This document shows, piece after piece, positions 11,477 to 64,000 of a DNA stretch of 64,000 nucleotides. The first letter of the stretch is position 1. Every line of letters begins with the position of its first letter. Source of the stretch: Prevotella sp. (lineage in GTDB: Bacteria; Bacteroidota; Bacteroidia; Bacteroidales; Bacteroidaceae); the NCBI GenBank assembly GCA_021636625.1, contig JAJWLX010000004.1, positions 48,004 to 112,003 of the forward strand. Reading direction: 5' to 3'. The notes under the pieces were generated by a model, which ran no database searches, was not told the DNA's origin, and saw only the letters and a program-made list of their open reading frames with translations. Position numbers and translations under genes: made by a program.

Positions 11477-11834
11477 ATCATTCTTTATAGTCTTTGAATA
11501 GTCTTATATCTTTCTGATAATCATGGTGCAAAGATAATTATAATTTTATTATTATGATACTATTATAATGCAAATATAGGAAAGTTTAACCATTTGAGGA
11601 ATTCTCTTCCTTGCTATCTGCTACCCCGAAAAATCTTCTTCTTTAGAAGAAGGAAAAAAACAAGAAAAATAATCCCGAAAAAATTTGGTGGTTTCAGAAT
11701 AATGATGTACTTTTGCACCCGAAATCAAGCATTAAGAGTTGCCCAGTTGCGGCACACCAACCGAGTTTCGCATAGAGATAACCACGGTGGTAAAAGAATG
11801 TGTAAGTGTTTAACAACTTAAAATAATTATCTTT

Positions 11835-12062
11835 ATGAATCCAAATTCAGATTTAAAGAACAATGAGAGTGTAATGGCAGCTAATGCCGAGTCAAGAATT
11901 TCAGAGTATGCTGCCCGTTTTGCCGCATACAGCGATGAGCGTTTGAAGCAGACCGTGGATCACGAGCGCAAGGTTCGTGGTTGGGGCAGCGAGCGCAGTT
12001 ACTTCCTTGCCGCCTTGCGAGGAGAGTGCGAGAAGCGAGGCATTGATTACTGCTGGAAGTAG
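11835..12062 (+). CDS. hypothetical small protein (75 aa)
   Basis: The ORF is preceded by a -7 box-like gTActTTTGcacccgaaa at 11709. The protein is not low-complexity. No family recognised. Confidence 0.35.
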   Translation: MNPNSDLKNNESVMAANAESRISEYAARFAAYSDERLKQTVDHERKVRGWGSERSYFLAALRGECEKRGIDYCWK

Positions 12063-54959: not shown

Positions 54960-56492
54960 ATGGTAACAATAATAGCGGCCCTGGTAGCTCTCGTGTTGGG
55001 AGGTATCGTAGGGTATGTCATTTTCCGTTATGTCATTAAGGGAAAATATAATGAAATGATAGATGCTGCCAACAAAGAGGCAGAAGTAGTAAAGGAGAAA
55101 AAGCTTCTCGAAGTAAAGGAGAAGTTCCTCAATAAGAAAGCCGAGTTGGAGAAGGAGGTGCAGCAGCGCAACTCCCGCATCCAGCAGAGTGAAAACAAGC
55201 TCAAGCAGCGCGAAATCTCGCTCAACCAGCGACAGGAAGACCTCGGTCGCCGCAAGCAGGAGGTAGAGCAGTATCAGCAGCGCATCGACAATGAGAAGAA
55301 GCTCCTCGCCGTGAAGCAGCAGGAACTCGAGAAGATGCAGAAGCAGGAGCAGGCTAAGCTCGAAGAGCTTTCCGGTCTTAGCGCCGAGGAGGCGAAGAGC
55401 CGCTTGGTAGAGAGTCTGAAGGATCAGGCTCGTCTTGATGCAGCCAGCTACATCAATGAGATCATGGATGATGCCAAGCTCAATGCCAATCAGCAGGCTA
55501 AGAAGATCGTGATCCAGACCATCCAGCGTGTGGCTACCGAGACAGCTATCGAGAACTCTGTCTCTGTATTCCATATTGATAATGATGAGGTCAAGGGACG
55601 CATCATCGGTCGTGAAGGCCGCAACATCCGTGCCCTCGAGGCAGCCACTGGTGTGGAAATCGTGGTAGATGATACTCCTGAGGCTATCGTTATCTCAGCC
55701 TTCGACCCTGTGCGCCGTGAGGTTTGCCGTCTGGCTCTCCATCAGTTGGTAGCCGATGGCCGTATCCACCCAGCCCGTATCGAGGAGGTGGTAGCCAAGG
55801 TGAAGAAGCAGTTGGATAATGAGATCATCGAGACCGGTAAGCGTACAGCCATCGACCTCGGTATCCATGGTCTGCATCCAGAGCTCATCCGTATCATCGG
55901 TAAGATGAAGTACCGTTCATCTTATGGTCAGAACCTCTTGCAGCATGCGCGCGAAACTGCCAATCTCTGTGCTGTGATGGCTTCTGAGCTGGGCTTGAAC
56001 CCAAAGAAGGCAAAGCGTGCCGGTCTGTTGCACGATATCGGTAAGGTGCCAGACGAGGAGAGCGAGTTGCCACACGCACTCTATGGTGCCAAGATTGCTG
56101 AGAAGTACAAGGAGAAGGCAGATATCTGCAATGCCATCGGTGCTCACCACGACGAGATGGAGATGAACACCCTTCTGGCTCCTATCGTACAGGTATGTGA
56201 TGCCATCTCAGGTGCCCGTCCTGGTGCCCGCCGTGAGATTGTAGAGGCATATATCAAGCGATTGAACGATCTTGAGGCTATCGCCATGAGCTATCCTGGC
56301 GTTACCAAGACCTATGCCATCCAGGCAGGTCGTGAGCTTCGTGTCATCGTGGGTGCCGACAAGATGAGCGATGAGCAGAGTATCAAGCTCTCTGATGAGA
56401 TTGCAACCAAGATTCAGAACGAGATGACCTATCCGGGTCAGGTGAAGATCACCGTGATTCGTGAGACTCGCAGTGTAGCTTACGCTAAGTAA
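54960..56492 (+). CDS. rny: ribonuclease Y
   Basis: N-terminal TM segment, coiled coil, KH domain and an HD domain with GLLHDIGK. Confidence 0.95.
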
Positions 56493-56653
56493 GAAGGAAG
56501 CAAGCGATAAAACGCGTTTTCATATATTCGAAGTTTAAATTGTCGTTTCTCTCCTTCATAGGATGAGGAATGTATTTGATAAAGTCGCTGTTCTCTAGGG
56601 GACAGCGGCTTTTTTCTTTCATATCATGTACGGCTATATTTATATAATATAAT

Positions 56654-57352
56654 GTGATGAAAGCAGAACAGAAGATTTTAAAGCGATTCAATAAAGGATG
56701 CGTGGATTATCACCTTTTGGAGGATGGTGACCGGATTCTCATTGCCTTGAGCGGCGGAAAGGATTCCCTGGAACTGTTGCGCCTCTTGGCGCAGCGTGCC
56801 CACATCTATAAGCCGCATATCGAGGTAGAGGCGGCGCATATCATCATGGATAACATTCCTTACGAGACCGACCGTTCTTATCTGCAGGCATTTTGTGCAG
56901 AGAATGGCATCAAACTTCATATCCTGCATAGTTCTTTCGATGAATCCACCGATCCCCGCAAGACCCGTTGTTTCCTCTGTGCATGGAACCGCCGCAAGAC
57001 TCTTTTCGAGTTTGCAGTAACTCAAGGGTTCAATAAGATAGCCCTGGGTCATCACATGGATGATATCCTCGTTACTTTCCTGATGAATATCACCTTCGAG
57101 GGTTCTGCCTCCACGATGCTTCCTAGTCTGCGGTTGAAGCATTATCCGCTCACCATCATCCGTCCCCTCTGTCTGGTTCATGAGAAGGATATCCGGGAGG
57201 TGGCAGAAGAGTTGCAATTTACGAAGCAGAAGGCGCTGTGTCCGTACGAGGAGACCACGCGCCGCAGTGATATGCAGCAGATCTTCCAGCAGCTGGAACA
57301 GCTGAATCCCGAGGCGAGATACAGTCTTTGGCGGGCGATGATGAATAAGTGA
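56654..57352 (+). CDS. ttcA: tRNA 2-thiocytidine biosynthesis protein TtcA-like PP-loop ATPase
   Basis: PP-loop ALSGGKDS. Conserved Cys residues. 232 aa. Confidence 0.75.
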   Translation: MMKAEQKILKRFNKGCVDYHLLEDGDRILIALSGGKDSLELLRLLAQRAHIYKPHIEVEAAHIIMDNIPYETDRSYLQAFCAENGIKLHILHSSFDESTDPRKTRCFLCAWNRRKTLFEFAVTQGFNKIALGHHMDDILVTFLMNITFEGSASTMLPSLRLKHYPLTIIRPLCLVHEKDIREVAEELQFTKQKALCPYEETTRRSDMQQIFQQLEQLNPEARYSLWRAMMNK

Positions 57353-57406: not shown

Positions 57407-58390
57407 CTAGCTTGCCGCTAAGCCCCTGAGCTGATAGTTCAGCAGATGGGTGGCGCTGGATAGCATCTGGTTCGTGATATGCGCATATCGCTGCGTGGTG
57501 TTGATGCTCTGATGCCCCAGATACCTCATGATGGTATAGATATCCGTGCCCTGCGTCAATAATAGGGTGGCGCAGGTGTGGCGGCCCGAATGGAAGGTGA
57601 TATGCTTGTCAGAGATACAGCAGTCTTCCAGCCATACTTCCAGATGCTCGCCCAGATGATGGGGGGAAAGATGAGCGAAGAAGTAGGGGGTATCACCATT
57701 CTTGGCATGGAGCTTCGAGAGGATATGGTGCGCCTCTTCCGGCAGCGGAAGCCGGAGCCAGCGTTGCGTCTTCTTCATCTTCTTATATATATAATAGGTG
57801 TCATTGCATTTTTCTATGTCGTTTATCGATAAGCTCAGGATATCGCTTTTCCTCAGTCCCGTGATGCAGCTTAGCAGGAATGCCTCCTTCAGCTCGGGAG
57901 TATTACAGGGTGTTTCGCTCAGCTTGATGAGTTCCTCCTGGGTCAGCGCAGTTCTTTCCCTGTACTGGGCTTTGACGCGATAGGAATGGGGCAGCAGGTC
58001 GAATGGGTTCTGATCCAGCAATCCCTGTCTCACGGCTTCCCTCAATACCGATTTCAGGATATTCACCTTCAGATGGATGGTGCTGTCGGATAGTTTTCCG
58101 GGTGTCTTCATGTTTTTATGCAGGTCGTGGGCTGATCGAAGGTAGTCGATAAACTGCTTGACGGTTTCCACATCCACCTTTTTCAGCGGGATGTTGCTTC
58201 CGCCGAAGGTCTCCAGGTGCTTCAGCATGCCCAGTACGCTGCCGCATCTTCCCTCATATATTTTCTCTCCTTCCTTGCGTCTTTCATCCGCATAGCTTCG
58301 GGTAAACTCTCCTAATGTAATACCTTTTGATTTCTTACGTGCGTCTGCTGCGAATTTCTTGATTCGGCTAAAGATGGTAATCTTCATCAT
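57407..58390 (-). CDS. tyrosine-type site-specific recombinase
   Basis: C-terminal catalytic block HSGRHTCATLLLTQGTDIYTIMRYLGHQSINTTQRYAHI. Start reassigned to MMKITIFSRIKKF. Confidence 0.85.
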   Translation of the reverse strand: MMKITIFSRIKKFAADARKKSKGITLGEFTRSYADERRKEGEKIYEGRCGSVLGMLKHLETFGGSNIPLKKVDVETVKQFIDYLRSAHDLHKNMKTPGKLSDSTIHLKVNILKSVLREAVRQGLLDQNPFDLLPHSYRVKAQYRERTALTQEELIKLSETPCNTPELKEAFLLSCITGLRKSDILSLSINDIEKCNDTYYIYKKMKKTQRWLRLPLPEEAHHILSKLHAKNGDTPYFFAHLSPHHLGEHLEVWLEDCCISDKHITFHSGRHTCATLLLTQGTDIYTIMRYLGHQSINTTQRYAHITNQMLSSATHLLNYQLRGLAAS

Positions 58391-58506
58391 TTCGTTTCTT
58401 GTTAAAAAAATGCTTTTTGGGTTATTAAAGTTACAAAGGTATCGCTTTTTTCTAGAATAACCAAACAAAAGGAAGAAAAGGAATGTAAAAAGCGTGATTT
58501 TGTGCA

Positions 58507-58726
58507 ACAGTTGTACGTTAACTTTAGCGCTGCAAAGGTAGTACAATTTATTCAATTCGCAATAAATTCAAACTCTCTTTTAATGTTTATTAATAAATTA
58601 TAGTCAATATTTCTTATTTTGTGGTCAAAAACGGTATATTTGTGCAATTTTAGCTAAAGCAAACAACACTAAAAAGACTTTTTTAGGATTTATTTCAGTC
58701 ATCTGATACAGTTAACGTACAACTGT
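58507..58726. promoter_or_regulatory. candidate invertible promoter segment (about 204 bp) bounded by inverted 16-bp recombinase core sites, with an internal TAtaTTTG -7 box at 58635-58642 facing the fimbrial operon
   Basis: ACAGTTGTACGTTAAC at 58507-58522 is the exact reverse complement of GTTAACGTACAACTGT at 58711-58726. The right-hand site extends to the arm-spacer-arm form GATACAGTT-AACGTAC-AACTGTATC. A third copy in direct orientation lies at 58757-58772. Confidence 0.55.
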
Positions 58727-58943
58727 ATCGCAGTAAACGTGGCCTTTCGCTACAGTTAACGTACAACTGTATCAGTTCGTACGGTTAGAAGACATAAGGT
58801 AAAACCAACTCAAAATATCATAGCAGCAGTAAATGATAATTGGTACCTTTAATAACGAAACTGTAATAAAACCCAAGTCTATCTTTTTTATAAAAGAAGA
58901 CAGGTAATAAACTCAAAGTATATAAATATTTAATGATATAAGT

Positions 58944-60245
58944 ATGGTAAAGAAAATAGTTATGGTGATGCTATTGCCCACTACGATCATGGCACATGCA
59001 TACGCCGGCTCGGCAAACGATACCCTGCGGACAAAGGTATATTACCAGACAGGCAATTCGTTAGTTGATCTTTCCTTTATGGATAATGCGGCGAACCTGA
59101 AAAGGCTCAAAGATGGAATCAAAAGTCTGACCGACAATCCAAATGTAGAGTTGAGGAATATCAAGATTCGCACCGCTACATCCCCTGAAGGAAATCCTGC
59201 CTTCAATAAAAAGCTGGCTAGAAAACGTGGGGAATCATTGCGTGATTACCTCAAGCAAAATCTCGCACTTTCTGACGATATGTTCATCATATCTGATGTT
59301 GGTGAAGACTGGGAAGGGCTGACACAGATGATTGCCGAGGAAGACCTGCCATGGGCAAACCGGGCGATACATATTATTCAAAATACGCCGGAGTGGATTT
59401 TCAGAAACAGAAGAATCGTTGACGGAAGAAAGCGACAGCTTCAGAACCTATATGGCGGTAGAGCATGGAAGTATATGCTCGCTAACTATTTCGGTAGTCT
59501 CCGCGCTGCAACCGTCATCGTTTGTGAAGTTACCAGCAATCCTCCTGCTGCACAGCCTGCTGTACCACCAGCAGCATCGCCGGTTGAACCGTCTCCAGCG
59601 CCGTCTCCAGAAAACAAAGTGGATACCATTGTAGCACCACCGGAAATCAAGGTGGATACCATAATTGAAAAGAAGGTAGAAATCGTAAAACCCAATAAGT
59701 ATTATGCTTTGAAAACCAATCTCCTGTATGATGCTCTCTTTGTTCCTAATATTGGAATCGAAACTAACGTAGGAGGGGGATGGACTCTGGGTGCCAGCGG
59801 TATGTTGGCATGGTGGAGCAAGGATGCAAGCCACAAATACTGGCGTATCTACGGCGGAGAGCTGGACGTGAATAAGTATTTCGGTGCAAAAGCGAAGGAA
59901 AAACCGCTGCAGGGACATCATGTCTCGCTCTATGGACAGTTCCTCTCCTATGATATAGAAAGAGGTGGTACTGGATATCAGGGCAAGCAGGCCTTCGGGG
60001 TTGGATTGGGGTATGGATATTCACTCCCGATAGGCAGACGCCTGAACCTTGATTTCGGACTGGGAATTGGATACTTTTACTCCCGGTATAAAACGTATGA
60101 GCCGCTTGATGGCTGCTACGTTTATCAGGAAACCAAGGAGCGCCAATGGATAGGACCTACCCGTGCTTCAGTATCACTGGTATGGCTGCTGGGTAATGGA
60201 AACGAAAACAGTAAGAAAGCAAAAAAGGAGGTGAAAAATGACTAG
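58944..60245 (+). CDS. DUF3575-family outer-membrane protein, first gene of a type V pilus locus
   Basis: Signal peptide. OmpA-like beta-barrel segment YYALKTNLLYDALFVPNIGIETNVGGGWTLGASG. Confidence 0.65.
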   Translation: MVKKIVMVMLLPTTIMAHAYAGSANDTLRTKVYYQTGNSLVDLSFMDNAANLKRLKDGIKSLTDNPNVELRNIKIRTATSPEGNPAFNKKLARKRGESLRDYLKQNLALSDDMFIISDVGEDWEGLTQMIAEEDLPWANRAIHIIQNTPEWIFRNRRIVDGRKRQLQNLYGGRAWKYMLANYFGSLRAATVIVCEVTSNPPAAQPAVPPAASPVEPSPAPSPENKVDTIVAPPEIKVDTIIEKKVEIVKPNKYYALKTNLLYDALFVPNIGIETNVGGGWTLGASGMLAWWSKDASHKYWRIYGGELDVNKYFGAKAKEKPLQGHHVSLYGQFLSYDIERGGTGYQGKQAFGVGLGYGYSLPIGRRLNLDFGLGIGYFYSRYKTYEPLDGCYVYQETKERQWIGPTRASVSLVWLLGNGNENSKKAKKEVKND

Positions 60246-61233
60246 AATGACAGAATTAAGACAAGCAATGATCGTATTCTTCCGCGTAATCGTCAGCGCA
60301 GCCTTCTTCCTGATGATGGCAGAACTGCTCTCATCCTGCGAGCACAAGGAACTCTGTTACGATCATCCTCACCGACAGAATGTGGAGGTGACGTTCGACT
60401 GGAGCGAGGCTCCCGATGCCAATCCAGCCACCATGAGTCTCTACCTCTATCCTGATGAGGGAGGAGAGCCTATCAGATACGAGTTTACGGATAAGAATGG
60501 TGAAACCATCTCCGTACCTGCAGGAACCTATCATGCCATCTGTGTAAACAGTGACAAGGAGACGCATCGTATCAACGGCAAGGAGAAATTCAATACTTTC
60601 GAGGTTACTTCAGCTGAAACTCAAGCTTTGCAGGGCTTGCTGGCTAGTATGGCTAAGTTTGAGCCACGTGCCAGAGGCACAGAAAAGGAGAGAGTGATGC
60701 TGGGACCGGCTATGCTCTATAGCGCCCATGCTGAGCGAGTGGTCATCAAGCCGGCAGGTGAGATGAGTACCATCACGATGAAACCTAAATCGAGAGTGAA
60801 GTATTTCTCTGTGGAAATCAAGAACGTGGAGAATATCCGGAGCGTGAAGGCGATGAGCGCAAGCTTGTCGGGATTGTCAGGCGGATGGCTGGCTGGTATT
60901 GATCAGTTGTCATCAGAGAGGGTTACCATTCCGTTTGCACTTGAGGTGGATCCTAGTCTTACCATCGTCAGGGGCAAGGAAAACCTCTTCGGTCACTGTC
61001 AGGACTCTTCTGCCAAGCATGTTCTGATGGTTTATGCGCAGCTTACCGATGACAGCAACTGGTTTTACGAGGTGGATGTCACCGATCAGGTTCACGCTGC
61101 CGATCAGGAAGAGGGTGCTCCTATCAAGATTGAGTTGGATAAACTGCCTTTCCCTGAGTCTGTACCGGGTGGTTCTGGTTTGCAGCCGAGCGTGAATAAG
61201 TGGAATGAAGTCCAAGTAGATATCAATTTGTAA
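60238..61233 (+). CDS. DUF5119/FimB-Mfa2-like fimbrial lipoprotein
   Basis: Lipoprotein signal LLSSCEHKELCYDHPH. Overlaps the upstream gene by 8 nt. Confidence 0.55.
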   Translation: MTRMTELRQAMIVFFRVIVSAAFFLMMAELLSSCEHKELCYDHPHRQNVEVTFDWSEAPDANPATMSLYLYPDEGGEPIRYEFTDKNGETISVPAGTYHAICVNSDKETHRINGKEKFNTFEVTSAETQALQGLLASMAKFEPRARGTEKERVMLGPAMLYSAHAERVVIKPAGEMSTITMKPKSRVKYFSVEIKNVENIRSVKAMSASLSGLSGGWLAGIDQLSSERVTIPFALEVDPSLTIVRGKENLFGHCQDSSAKHVLMVYAQLTDDSNWFYEVDVTDQVHAADQEEGAPIKIELDKLPFPESVPGGSGLQPSVNKWNEVQVDINL

Positions 61234-61333: not shown

Positions 61334-62494
61334 ATGAAAAAAAGTGTTTTATTAATGGCAGCAGCTACTGCTATTGCCTTGTCTTCATGCTCTTCAGAAG
61401 AGACTAAGGATATTGCGAAGAACTCTTCTAGCATCACCTTCCGTAGTACTGTAGGCTTGAACAGCCGTGGAGCTGAGGTAACAACTGATAATCTCAAGAA
61501 TATCTGGGTGAGTGCATGGAAAGATGCTGATGTAGCTTTTGAAAGCGAGAAGTTTGTAAAGAAAGATGGTACACAGGAGTTCCATTGTGATAAGGATGAA
61601 CCTTACTACTGGGAGAAGGATAAGCAATATACCTTTATGGCGTTTGCTACTGGTAAGGATGATATGGGAGGCTTAACTCCTACTATTAACAAGACCAGCA
61701 TTGTTTTGAATGATTATACTCCAGACAAAGATCCTTCAAAGCATATGGATTTGCTTGCAGCTCAGGCAACTGGCGATATCACTCAGAATGGAACTACAGG
61801 AGTTCCTTTGACTTTCGAGCATATCCTTTCCCAGATTCAGGTCAAGGTGAAGAGTGAAAATCAGGATGTGAAGTATGTCATCCGTGGTGTTCGTATTTCT
61901 AATGTAAAGGGTACAGGAAACTATACCTATACACCTGCATCTCCTGATCAGAAGCACGCTTGGACAGTCAACACTGCGGCTCAATATGTCAGTGATCAGG
62001 GTATAGATATCCGACTTGATGGTACAGATGGAGCCTTTAAGGAACTGCTCGCTGGTAATCTGAGTGCTATGCTTCTTCCTCAGTCTGTGACAGCATGGGA
62101 TGGTACTGTTCCAGGAGATGTAGATGCAACTTTCGATCAAGTTAATGGTTCTTACATCTCTCTCTTGATTAATATTCAGAAGAAGGGTAAAGATGGCCGA
62201 TGGATGCAGGTTTATCCTAAGAATGCTACACAAGATACACAGTGCGGTTGGACTGCTGTAGCTATCCCTACTCTTAAATGGGAAAGTGGCAAGAAGTATA
62301 TTTACAATCTTGACTTGACATTTGGTGCAGGCGTTGTAGATCCTGTACAGCCTAATCCTGATGGAACAGATATTGTGAAGCCAGGTGAGCCAGGTAAGGA
62401 TCCAGGTAAGGGTGATGAAATCTTGGGTAAGGAAATCTTCTTCAAGGTTGATGTTAAGACTTGGGAGCCTACTGATCAGAATGTTAATATGTAA
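61334..62494 (+). CDS. fimbrillin-family (Mfa1/FimA-like) protein
   Basis: Lipoprotein signal AIALSSCSSEE. Beta-rich. 386 aa. Confidence 0.65.
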   Translation: MKKSVLLMAAATAIALSSCSSEETKDIAKNSSSITFRSTVGLNSRGAEVTTDNLKNIWVSAWKDADVAFESEKFVKKDGTQEFHCDKDEPYYWEKDKQYTFMAFATGKDDMGGLTPTINKTSIVLNDYTPDKDPSKHMDLLAAQATGDITQNGTTGVPLTFEHILSQIQVKVKSENQDVKYVIRGVRISNVKGTGNYTYTPASPDQKHAWTVNTAAQYVSDQGIDIRLDGTDGAFKELLAGNLSAMLLPQSVTAWDGTVPGDVDATFDQVNGSYISLLINIQKKGKDGRWMQVYPKNATQDTQCGWTAVAIPTLKWESGKKYIYNLDLTFGAGVVDPVQPNPDGTDIVKPGEPGKDPGKGDEILGKEIFFKVDVKTWEPTDQNVNM

Positions 62495-62570: not shown

Positions 62571-62617
62571 GATTCTTTACCCTTATTGGCGTAAAAAAGA
62601 ATAAAAAGAAAACTATA

Positions 62618-64000
62618 TGATGAACAAAACTTATAAATGTAGTTTGTTGGCACTCAGTGTACTCGCATCCTTTACGTCATGTTCAGAAAGCGAATCACTG
62701 CAGCAAGCCAATCTATCTAATGATAAAATAACATTTCAACCATCGCTCGACAATAGCTGGAAGCCTCTGTCTCCCAGCTCCTCTTCACGTGCAGCTAAAG
62801 ATGCAGCTAGTGAGGAGGGGGCTATCGTCGTGCCTACGTCCTACGGCAAGCCCCTCTATCTTCTGCCATTAGAGCAGGACGGCATCTATATCTGGAGCAA
62901 GGACGGAAAACGCATCACCCGTTCCGGTGCACTGCTGGAAGACGGTGAACAGGAAGGAGCTGCGCAGACCCGTGGAACCACAAAGAACGATATTCTAGAT
63001 TATGGTAGTTTTGGCGTAACTGCGATTTATAAGGAAGGAAATCAGAATGCATCATTATTCAAGAATAAAGATGGCGATCCTAGAATTGCCGTTGCCACAC
63101 CATTCATTCATAACAAGTTTTGGGAGATTGAGGATGCCCTATGGCCAAAGGAAGGAGAAGTATCTTTTCATGCTTTCGCTCCATATACCACGGATGCAAA
63201 CTCACCTCTGACTTTCACCCAAGACATAATCAATGGAACGACCAAGATCAAATATACAGCATCAAATACAGATATTGCCAATCAGCCTGACTTGATTGTT
63301 GCCACAAACAAAGGTCAGAAATCAAAGGAGGCTTTGGGCTTGAACTTCTATCATGCCCTTACAGCCGTAACCTTCGCTGTAGATAAGAATTTGGCACAGG
63401 TTATTGGTTCAGGGAAACAACTGACAAAGGTTGAATTGCGTGGTATCCCTAACAAGGGCACCTGTGTACTTTCTTTGTCAGGAACGGCTAATGTGCCAAG
63501 TGCTCAGTGGTCTCTTGAAAATGATAAGGTTACATACTCGTTCGATTTAACTAAAGAAAATATAATTGTTGGTAAGGAAGATTATGCGCTCACACTGGGA
63601 GATCAAACATTGATGATGATTCCTCAGACTTTGCCAGATGGGGCTGAGGTATGCTTCACTTTGAAACACAATGGAGAAACAAAAGATTATACAATATCTC
63701 TCAAAGATAAACAATGGACAGCTGGTAAATCTGTCATCTATAAGCTTTCGTCCCAACAAATCTCATCGTTTGGTCTCGGCGTTATTAAATATGATAATTC
63801 CTGGAATGAATACGATAAAAAGGGCGGTAGCTATTACACGAATTTTCCAAAATCGGCTTTTACACACTACGACGAAGTAGGCCTTTACATTGTAAATAAT
63901 TCAAATGAACTGATAGCAGAAAATCTTCTGATTATTCGACAAGATGTGAATTGGAGGATATACGAAGCTAACGTAAAGTTCCCATACTCTCCTGGTAATT
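62618..64000 (+). CDS. second fimbrillin-family protein (partial, runs off the window end)
   Basis: MMNKTYKCSLLALSVLASFTSCSESESL lipoprotein signal. The frame stays open to the window end. Confidence 0.5.

Follow-up and report, generated by a model that had tools for sequence, protein, structure and literature searches.

Invertible promoters that lie beside tyrosine recombinase genes and control Mfa-type pili have been established experimentally in Phocaeicola vulgatus (BVU2684) and in Bacteroides fragilis (BF2766, IVp-I/IVp-II) (PMC12940148), and fimbrillin-linked inverton groups are described across gut Bacteroidales (PMC11892184; PMC12632263). Here we analysed a stretch of 64,000 nucleotides from Prevotella sp. 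(GenBank assembly GCA_021636625.1, contig JAJWLX010000004.1, positions 48,004 to 112,003), which is called the window below and whose own numbering is used throughout. At a locus of Segatella copri, between the gene of a tyrosine recombinase and an operon of DUF3575, DUF5119 and fimbrillin genes, three related sites, here named A, B and C, enclose a non-coding segment of ~200-250 bp. We consider it probable (about 0.85) that this is a site-specific inversion switch (inverton) which phase-varies the type V pilus operon of S. copri by means of the divergently encoded 327-amino-acid (aa) recombinase and the three sites. The original prediction for this DNA had proposed a tyrosine-recombinase inversion switch at this place, and two naturally rearranged metagenome contigs support it. 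The observation was confirmed and the switch is real; its boundaries and its regulon had been misjudged, and the assignment of the present state as ON is probably wrong.

As in the Tsr/Mfa1 switches of P. vulgatus and B. fragilis, a recombinase gene adjoins a short invertible segment with candidate promoters, flanked by inverted repeats, ahead of the type V pilus operon that it would control in a member of the gut Bacteroidales. However, the inverted repeat motif of these two species, TACTTNNNANGTAANNGAA, is unrelated to the S. copri sites: it has no match at the switch, and elsewhere in the window two matches at chance level, with 2 mismatches, were found. Whereas the P. vulgatus/B. fragilis system couples exopolysaccharide and pilus loci via cross-reacting recombinases, the S. 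copri site is unique to one locus. A further difference is the presence of three sites, one inverted and two as a tandem pair, with four arrangements deduced from sequence. For BVU2684, recombinase and switch have been reconstituted on plasmids in E. coli.

The fimS element of E. coli is likewise a short promoter segment (~200-300 bp), inverted by tyrosine recombinases whose genes adjoin it, which leads to phase-variable fimbriae. Unlike S. copri, it serves chaperone-usher fimbriae in place of type V pili and has two 9-bp inverted repeats in place of three 25-bp sites. In addition, the S. copri recombinase is placed outside the FimB/FimE family (NCBIfam PRK09870/PRK09871) by its scores, 29.6 bits for NF007370 (cut-off 221) and 19.6 for the other model (cut-off 222), and its gene is divergent and not co-directional.

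Common features are also shared with the capsule and surface-protein invertons of B. thetaiotaomicron and B. fragilis, which carry a promoter with a -7 TAnnTTTG box inside, often have a dedicated tyrosine recombinase and generate surface heterogeneity (PMC12632263, PMC10403206). These differ in their cargo, namely capsular polysaccharide or outer-surface protein operons, and in the sequence of their inverted repeats, and the polysaccharide loci of B. fragilis use the global serine invertase Mpi. Work on Tsr19 (Weinacht 2004) also concerns these Bacteroides promoter invertons. The consensus of Mpi-type inverted repeats is ARACGTWCGT; it had 0 matches in the window, and the local recombinase is of the tyrosine and not of the serine type. 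Shufflons (Rci/sfx; hsdS) contain more than two sites in mixed orientation and reach more than two arrangements by nested inversions, by which coding segments are rearranged into protein variants. The S. copri switch resembles them in being multi-site, and one contig (L031, see below) is the product of two successive inversions. In contrast to shufflons, neither of its segments is coding, one being the promoter segment and the other a spacer unit of 25 bp, and a plain two-site form is found in some lineages. Full-text literature searches gave no description of phase variation or of fimbrial invertons in S. copri or Prevotella; the type of device is known, and this instance in S. copri has apparently not been described before.

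Recombination sites and natural rearranged forms

As had been claimed, the 16-mer ACAGTTGTACGTTAAC occupies 58507-58522, and 58711-58726 holds GTTAACGTACAACTGT, which is exactly its reverse complement. The third 16-mer, a direct copy, is real as well; it occupies 58755-58770 and had been placed two positions too far to the right (58757-58772). With up to three mismatches allowed, the 19-mer core ACAGTTAACGTACAACTGT has exactly three matches in the 64-kb window, at 58507-58525 (minus strand, 1 mismatch), 58708-58726 (plus strand) and 58752-58770 (plus strand), and none was found in 100 dinucleotide-preserving shuffles of the window. The site repeats are real and far beyond chance.

The full site reads GATACAGTT-AACGTAC-AACTGTATC and is composed of 9-bp arms and a 7-bp spacer. 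Site B, the inner right copy (58705-58729, plus strand), corresponds to this sequence, and site C, the outer right copy (58749-58773, plus strand), reads GCTACAGTT-AACGTAC-AACTGTATC. Both are complete 25-bp sites, (G)ATACAGTT-AACGTAC-AACTGTATC, with perfect 9-bp inverted arms around an asymmetric 7-bp spacer; they are in direct orientation to each other at a distance of 44 bp. Site A, the left inverted repeat (58503-58529, minus strand), is the inverted copy, with a good outer arm (ACAGTT), the spacer GTACGTT and a degenerate inner arm (AACTTTAGC). Together, A and C form an inverted repeat of 23 nt with 96% complementarity (58507-58529 with 58748-58770), which is the best inverted repeat of the whole window, small hairpins aside. 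The inverted repeat of A with the inner copy B comprises 20 nt (95%). Between the sites lie the main invertible segment s1 (58526-58707) and a short second segment s2 (58727-58751), which fills the 25 bp separating cores B and C; s2 and one site constitute a tandem unit of 44-45 bp. RNA folding of the leader gave just the hairpins expected from palindromic sites.

The window recombinase, taken from either of two start codons, and the DUF3575 protein of the window had no match in exact-protein look-ups, so close recombinase alleles were used for contig retrieval. Contigs encoding these alleles, together with public genomes and metagenomes scanned for the core site, yielded ~105 informative contigs, and all statements on arrangements refer to the assembly level. 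In ~103 of them, including all 17 contigs added from three more alleles, we observed the arrangement of the window. The two others, L003 and L031, are rearranged, and they come from different studies and different assemblers.

L003 is a 70.8-kb scaffold whose recombinase allele is the same as that of L001-L007. Its A-to-C interval, including s1 and s2, is precisely inverted, which brings s2 next to site A, with both flanks collinear; over 434 nt it is 98.4% identical to the in-silico product of A x C recombination of an L095-type sequence, in comparison with 63% for the un-rearranged sequence. In L031 the 44-bp unit is inverted and moved beside site A, and s1 again runs as in the window. Its hybrid arms agree exactly with the prediction for an A x C event and a subsequent B x C event; the identity to this double-inversion product is 99.0% over 294 nt, and the alternatives reach 52-55%. 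In both contigs the hybrid junctions put the crossover within the shared 16-bp core. As the inverted repeats (16-23 bp) are shorter than usual assembly k-mers, the assembly paths of L003 and L031 should have needed supporting reads. Human gut metagenomes therefore contain the segment in more than one orientation.

Judged from its sites and from these products, the locus is a three-site inverton with two invertible segments and four arrangements that are predicted to interconvert: the window form (state 1), the A x B product (state 2), the A x C product (state 3) and the double inversion (state 4). Three of the four have been seen, state 1 in the window and ~103 contigs, state 3 in L003 and state 4 in L031. 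Because no single inversion turns state 1 into state 4, L031 indicates that both right-hand copies recombine, and the use of the inner site B is implied solely by the hybrid junction of this contig. Site C had been regarded as lying just outside the switch; L003, the sole single-step product seen, used this outer copy as the partner of site A, which makes it part of the switch.

A second line of evidence is given by the spacers. All 12 loci whose right copies have the spacer AAAGTAC carry GTACTTT at site A, and all loci with AACGTAC carry GTACGTT. Tyrosine recombinases require identical overlap regions, and the co-variation fits this need; it is consistent with ongoing recombination or with selection for identical spacers. 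The start-to-start spacing from A to B is 200-201 bp in every contig of the S. copri complex, and the 44-45-bp unit occurs once, twice or three times depending on the lineage. Loci with three units in some lineages and one in others are L008, L087, L028, L053, L070, L084; L012, L015, L017, L020 and others, and the end of contig L053 falls exactly into the unit array. Contigs that break inside the switch (L007, L016, L027, L031, L032, L053, L060, L101, L103, L111, L112) are about twice as many as roughly expected, so they were not used as proof of mixed populations.

Candidate promoters and the state of the switch

Inside the segment, two outward-facing boxes of the Bacteroidota -7 motif TAnnTTTG were found at opposite ends. 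The first, P_left, has the -7 box TACCTTTG on the minus strand (58540 to 58533), 4-8 nt inside site A, and points outward through this site toward the recombinase gene. The second, P_right, is the -7-like box TATATTTG on the plus strand at 58635-58642, which faces the fimbrial operon in the orientation of the window. No fixed TAnnTTTG exists between site C and the start codon of the operon; the operon would thus depend on the invertible segment.

For comparison, a search of 50%-identity cluster representatives delivered three distant systems, L113, L115 and L114, whose recombinases are 51%, 47% and 44% identical to that of the window. In L115 and L114 inverted repeats are found ~200 bp apart (198-203 bp) beside DUF3575 operons, and in the case of L113 the contig ends inside the segment, so that the recombinase-proximal site alone is visible. 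The window and all three distant systems carry TAnnTTTG-CAG(C/T)G inside the recombinase-proximal repeat, always at an identical offset. A TTG lies upstream of this P_left-type box, at 18-21 nt in the distant systems and at 19 nt in the window and L114. Among ~85 loci the P_left box is canonical in all but 2, and the other variation is confined to an 'n' position. For P_right, the canonical box was observed in ~53 of 85 loci, and ~23 carry TATATTTC, TGTATTTC, CATATTTG or GATATTTG. The conservation of P_left in these loci and in the three distant systems, together with the lack of a plus-strand TAnnTTTG in the switch of L115, suggests that P_left is most likely the switchable promoter. Because the window has P_left directed at the recombinase gene, the window form, and with it the state of nearly all assembled populations, would be pilus-OFF. 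From motifs and conservation we favour this assignment, with odds not far above even.

The original prediction had taken the box at 58635-58642 as the active promoter and the current state as ON. The box is indeed there, fits TAnnTTTG and faces the operon, plus-strand TAnnTTTG boxes also lie inside the segments of L113 and L114, and the leader downstream of P_right is well conserved. If P_right were the active promoter of an otherwise identical switch, the window and almost all sampled gut populations would be fimbriae-ON, and inversion would lead to OFF. We give this alternative about one chance in four. It is weakened by the poor conservation of the key G of the box, one of the most variable positions in the segment. 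In the ~23 loci with non-canonical forms the recombinases are mostly full length (326-328 aa; 4 are shorter and 3 are cut by the contig end), and DUF3575 is intact (434 aa) in the 4 where it is readable. The box has no counterpart in L115, and its -33 element is poor, with TTTC at N21 as the sole -33 match and a TTTG at N13. Furthermore, if P_left works, the inverted state would still transcribe the operon, and a true OFF state would not exist.

It is also conceivable that both outward promoters are active, with different strength or regulation, and that upon inversion they trade places between the pilus operon and the recombinase gene, so that the operon would never be silenced. The window, L113 and L114 have such boxes at the two ends of the segment, which would suit a promoter swap. 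We hold it to be unlikely, as many alleles, and likewise L115, have only a degenerate P_right or lack it, and the known fimbrial invertons of Bacteroidales act as ON/OFF switches (PMC12940148).

Some observations on the segment are added here. The loci L026 and L047 are the only ones with a mutated P_left (TGCCTTTG); they carry TATATTTC at P_right and an apparently truncated recombinase open reading frame (ORF) of 256 aa, and their switch may be decaying. In L023 and L056 the recombinase ORFs have 276 aa. The start codons were detected by a crude procedure, so the lengths in these four loci are provisional. A direct repeat of 21 nt with 76% identity links 58487-58507 (AAAAAGCGTGATTTTGTGCAA), directly outside site A, and 58627-58647 (AAAAACGGTATATTTGTGCAA), around the P_right box. 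Both copies terminate in TTTGTGCAA, and the repeat could be due to chance, to an old duplication or to an accessory binding site. A sigma-70 and terminator scan was uninformative for Bacteroidota.

The adjacent recombinase and the proposed mechanism

The gene at 57407-58390 (minus strand), as stated in the original prediction together with the downstream DUF3575-DUF5119-fimbrillin operon and borne out by domain matches, encodes a tyrosine site-specific recombinase of 327 aa (PF00589, 1.1e-23, and PF13102) with a Phage_int_SAM_5 N-terminal domain. Its R...HxxR...H...Y residues align to XerC-like and XerD structures, from which catalytic competence is predicted. The protein is 98% identical to the metagenome protein P0001, and one of its close relatives bears the name Segatella copri. 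Most relatives have an N-terminal extension that this short form lacks: the nearest relatives are similarly short (318-343 aa), and most relatives at 35-40% identity have 370-400 aa with additional N-terminal residues. This extension may represent an arm-binding domain, the absence of which would fit a simple invertase.

A mechanically derived ORF (57407-58555, minus strand) runs upstream to a TTG at 58555, across site A and into the invertible segment. As relatives have 326-328 aa, the conserved start is the ATG at 58390, and the upstream extension is almost certainly untranslated; such an extension, though, would change with the orientation of the switch. Upstream of the gene and outside the invertible DNA, at 58434-58465 on the minus strand, lies a putative fixed promoter, TTTG-N20-TACCTTTG, a perfect match to the Bacteroidota -33/-7 consensus whose function is deduced from the motif. 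It is essentially invariant in 72 unique alleles, and a TTTG-N20-TAnnTTTG recombinase promoter also occurs in L113, L114 and L115.

We infer that this neighbouring gene encodes the invertase. A search for the site elsewhere in the genome had been proposed in order to define a recombinase regulon. When one genome per species was scanned, only 4 records contained the exact core, and the complete chromosome of S. copri HDE04 has it at a single locus; for this reason the recombinase appears to be dedicated to this switch and not to head a regulon. Core matches in L011, L034 and L074 were without homology to the locus and are probably chance matches of the 19-mer. Alternatively, the inversions might be catalysed by a recombinase encoded elsewhere, either one that acts globally, as Mpi does in B. 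fragilis, or a cross-reacting Tsr; the adjacent gene would then be incidental or redundant. There is precedent for this, since in P. vulgatus either of two Tsr inverts both promoters and in B. fragilis a distant Tsr controls the promoter of the pilus locus (PMC12940148). For S. copri we rate it as quite unlikely, given that the pairing of recombinase and switch is kept in ~105 contigs and in the distant systems, that the exact site is confined to one locus in a complete genome, and that both the Mpi-type consensus and the P. vulgatus/B. fragilis motif are absent at the switch.

On this basis the following mechanism is proposed. The 327-aa recombinase would be made from its own fixed promoter and would bind the 25-bp core sites, with strand exchange taking place within the shared 16-bp core. 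Recombination of A with C or with B would flip the promoter segment of ~200 bp. Excision between B and C is improbable, as the direct pair at 44 bp is probably too short to synapse, and the unit would thereby persist; even so, over evolution the number of units has varied from 1 to 3. In the window orientation P_left would fire through site A toward the recombinase gene, which would leave the pilus operon OFF and raise recombinase expression, a form of autoregulation. After inversion P_left would be located beside site C and read into the DUF3575-DUF5119-fimbrillin operon, corresponding to the ON state.

Several points speak against this proposal. A non-window arrangement occurs in just 2 of ~105 assembled contigs. 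The single-step A x B product, which would show two core matches on opposite strands ~250 bp apart, is absent among 81 metagenome loci. The pairing of recombinase and sites is deduced from adjacency and from the uniqueness of the site. Both candidate promoters are motif matches with imperfect -33 elements, and the conservation of P_left could instead originate from an accessory protein-binding site beside site A. Finally, if the window is OFF, a conserved promoter would boost the recombinase in the dominant state, and such an arrangement is not obviously stable.

The idea that the sites are non-functional, being att-like scars or terminal inverted repeats of a miniature mobile element with L003 and L031 as assembly artefacts, might draw on there being two rearranged contigs only and on the short length (1.4 kb) and low coverage of L031, but it is far-fetched in view of the repeats being shorter than assembly k-mers and of the spacer co-variation between A and B/C, and the readings as att sites or as a miniature inverted-repeat transposable element were rejected on account of the inverted geometry, the single copy of the element, the lack of a target-site duplication at the flanks and the exact reciprocal inversion products from different studies and assemblers.

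For the inversion switch, a broader scheme can be put forward as a speculation. There might exist a conserved Prevotellaceae family of short tyrosine invertases that run a three-site, four-state autoregulatory toggle, with a single outward promoter, itself conserved, serving by turns the pilus operon and the gene of the invertase. The copy number of the 44-bp module (1-3) might tune the switching rates, and the switch might serve as a fixed 'expression socket' before hypervariable pilin cassettes.

Specialists in Bacteroides phase variation will hardly be surprised by such a switch as such; the particulars worth attention are its three-site/four-state geometry, the candidate promoter facing the invertase gene in the prevalent state and the conserved switch in front of highly divergent pilins. 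S. copri is among the most abundant and most debated species of the human gut and is genetically hard to manipulate. For this poorly tractable organism the switch offers a concrete and testable handle on surface variation, and with it on adhesion heterogeneity, immune visibility and strain-level variation. This handle is made up of precisely defined sites, four arrangements that can be predicted, the candidate invertase and the hypervariable pilins downstream. The in-silico junctions are directly usable for PhaseFinder-style read counting in the many existing metagenomes rich in S. copri.

The pilus operon and its genomic neighbourhood

The controlled operon begins with the gene of a DUF3575 outer-membrane protein (58944-60245, plus strand; PF12099, 4.6e-36). 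On the same strand it is followed by a DUF5119/Mfa2-like protein (60238-61233; PF17145, 2.4e-56, with a weak match to PF08842), the putative pilus anchor, and by a fimbrillin-like lipoprotein of the Mfa_like_1 type (61334-62494; PF13149, 1.3e-17), a putative stalk pilin which is hypervariable between strains. A second fimbrillin-like gene of this type (62617-64000; PF13149, 1.3e-22) runs off the window. By gene content, with fimbrillin-fold lipoproteins and an anchor-like subunit, these four genes are assigned to a type V (Mfa/FimA-like) pilus operon.

The recombinase and the switch are conserved in the contigs of the S. copri complex, and the pilus genes behind them diverge strongly. Across the loci L001-L112 the recombinases have a median amino acid identity of 91%, in comparison with 61% for DUF3575, 70% for DUF5119 and 41% for the Mfa-like fimbrillin. 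The operon type of the window (>97% DUF3575 identity) is present in only four contigs, namely L021, L059, L068 and L084. It looks as if pilins are replaced like cassettes behind a fixed switch.

In comparison with most contigs, the leader of the window between site C and the DUF3575 start (58776-58880) contains an extra ~100 nt (GTTCGTACGGTTAGAAGACATAAGG...) before a shared CCAAGTCTATCTTTT block. On the far side of the recombinase (54960-57352 in the window; compared with L001-L007 and L096-L109) the gene content differs between lineages. A PP-loop ATPase and RNase Y are found beside the recombinase in the window and 6 contigs, and a HAD hydrolase and a PHO4 phosphate transporter in most contigs. 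Either the module of recombinase, switch and pilus genes would occupy two or more genomic contexts, or it lies directly against a rearrangement breakpoint. The window yielded no tRNA gene, and its sole Rfam match is a SAM-I/IV riboswitch aptamer at 11724-11835 on the plus strand (RF01725, 49.6 bits, above the gathering score).

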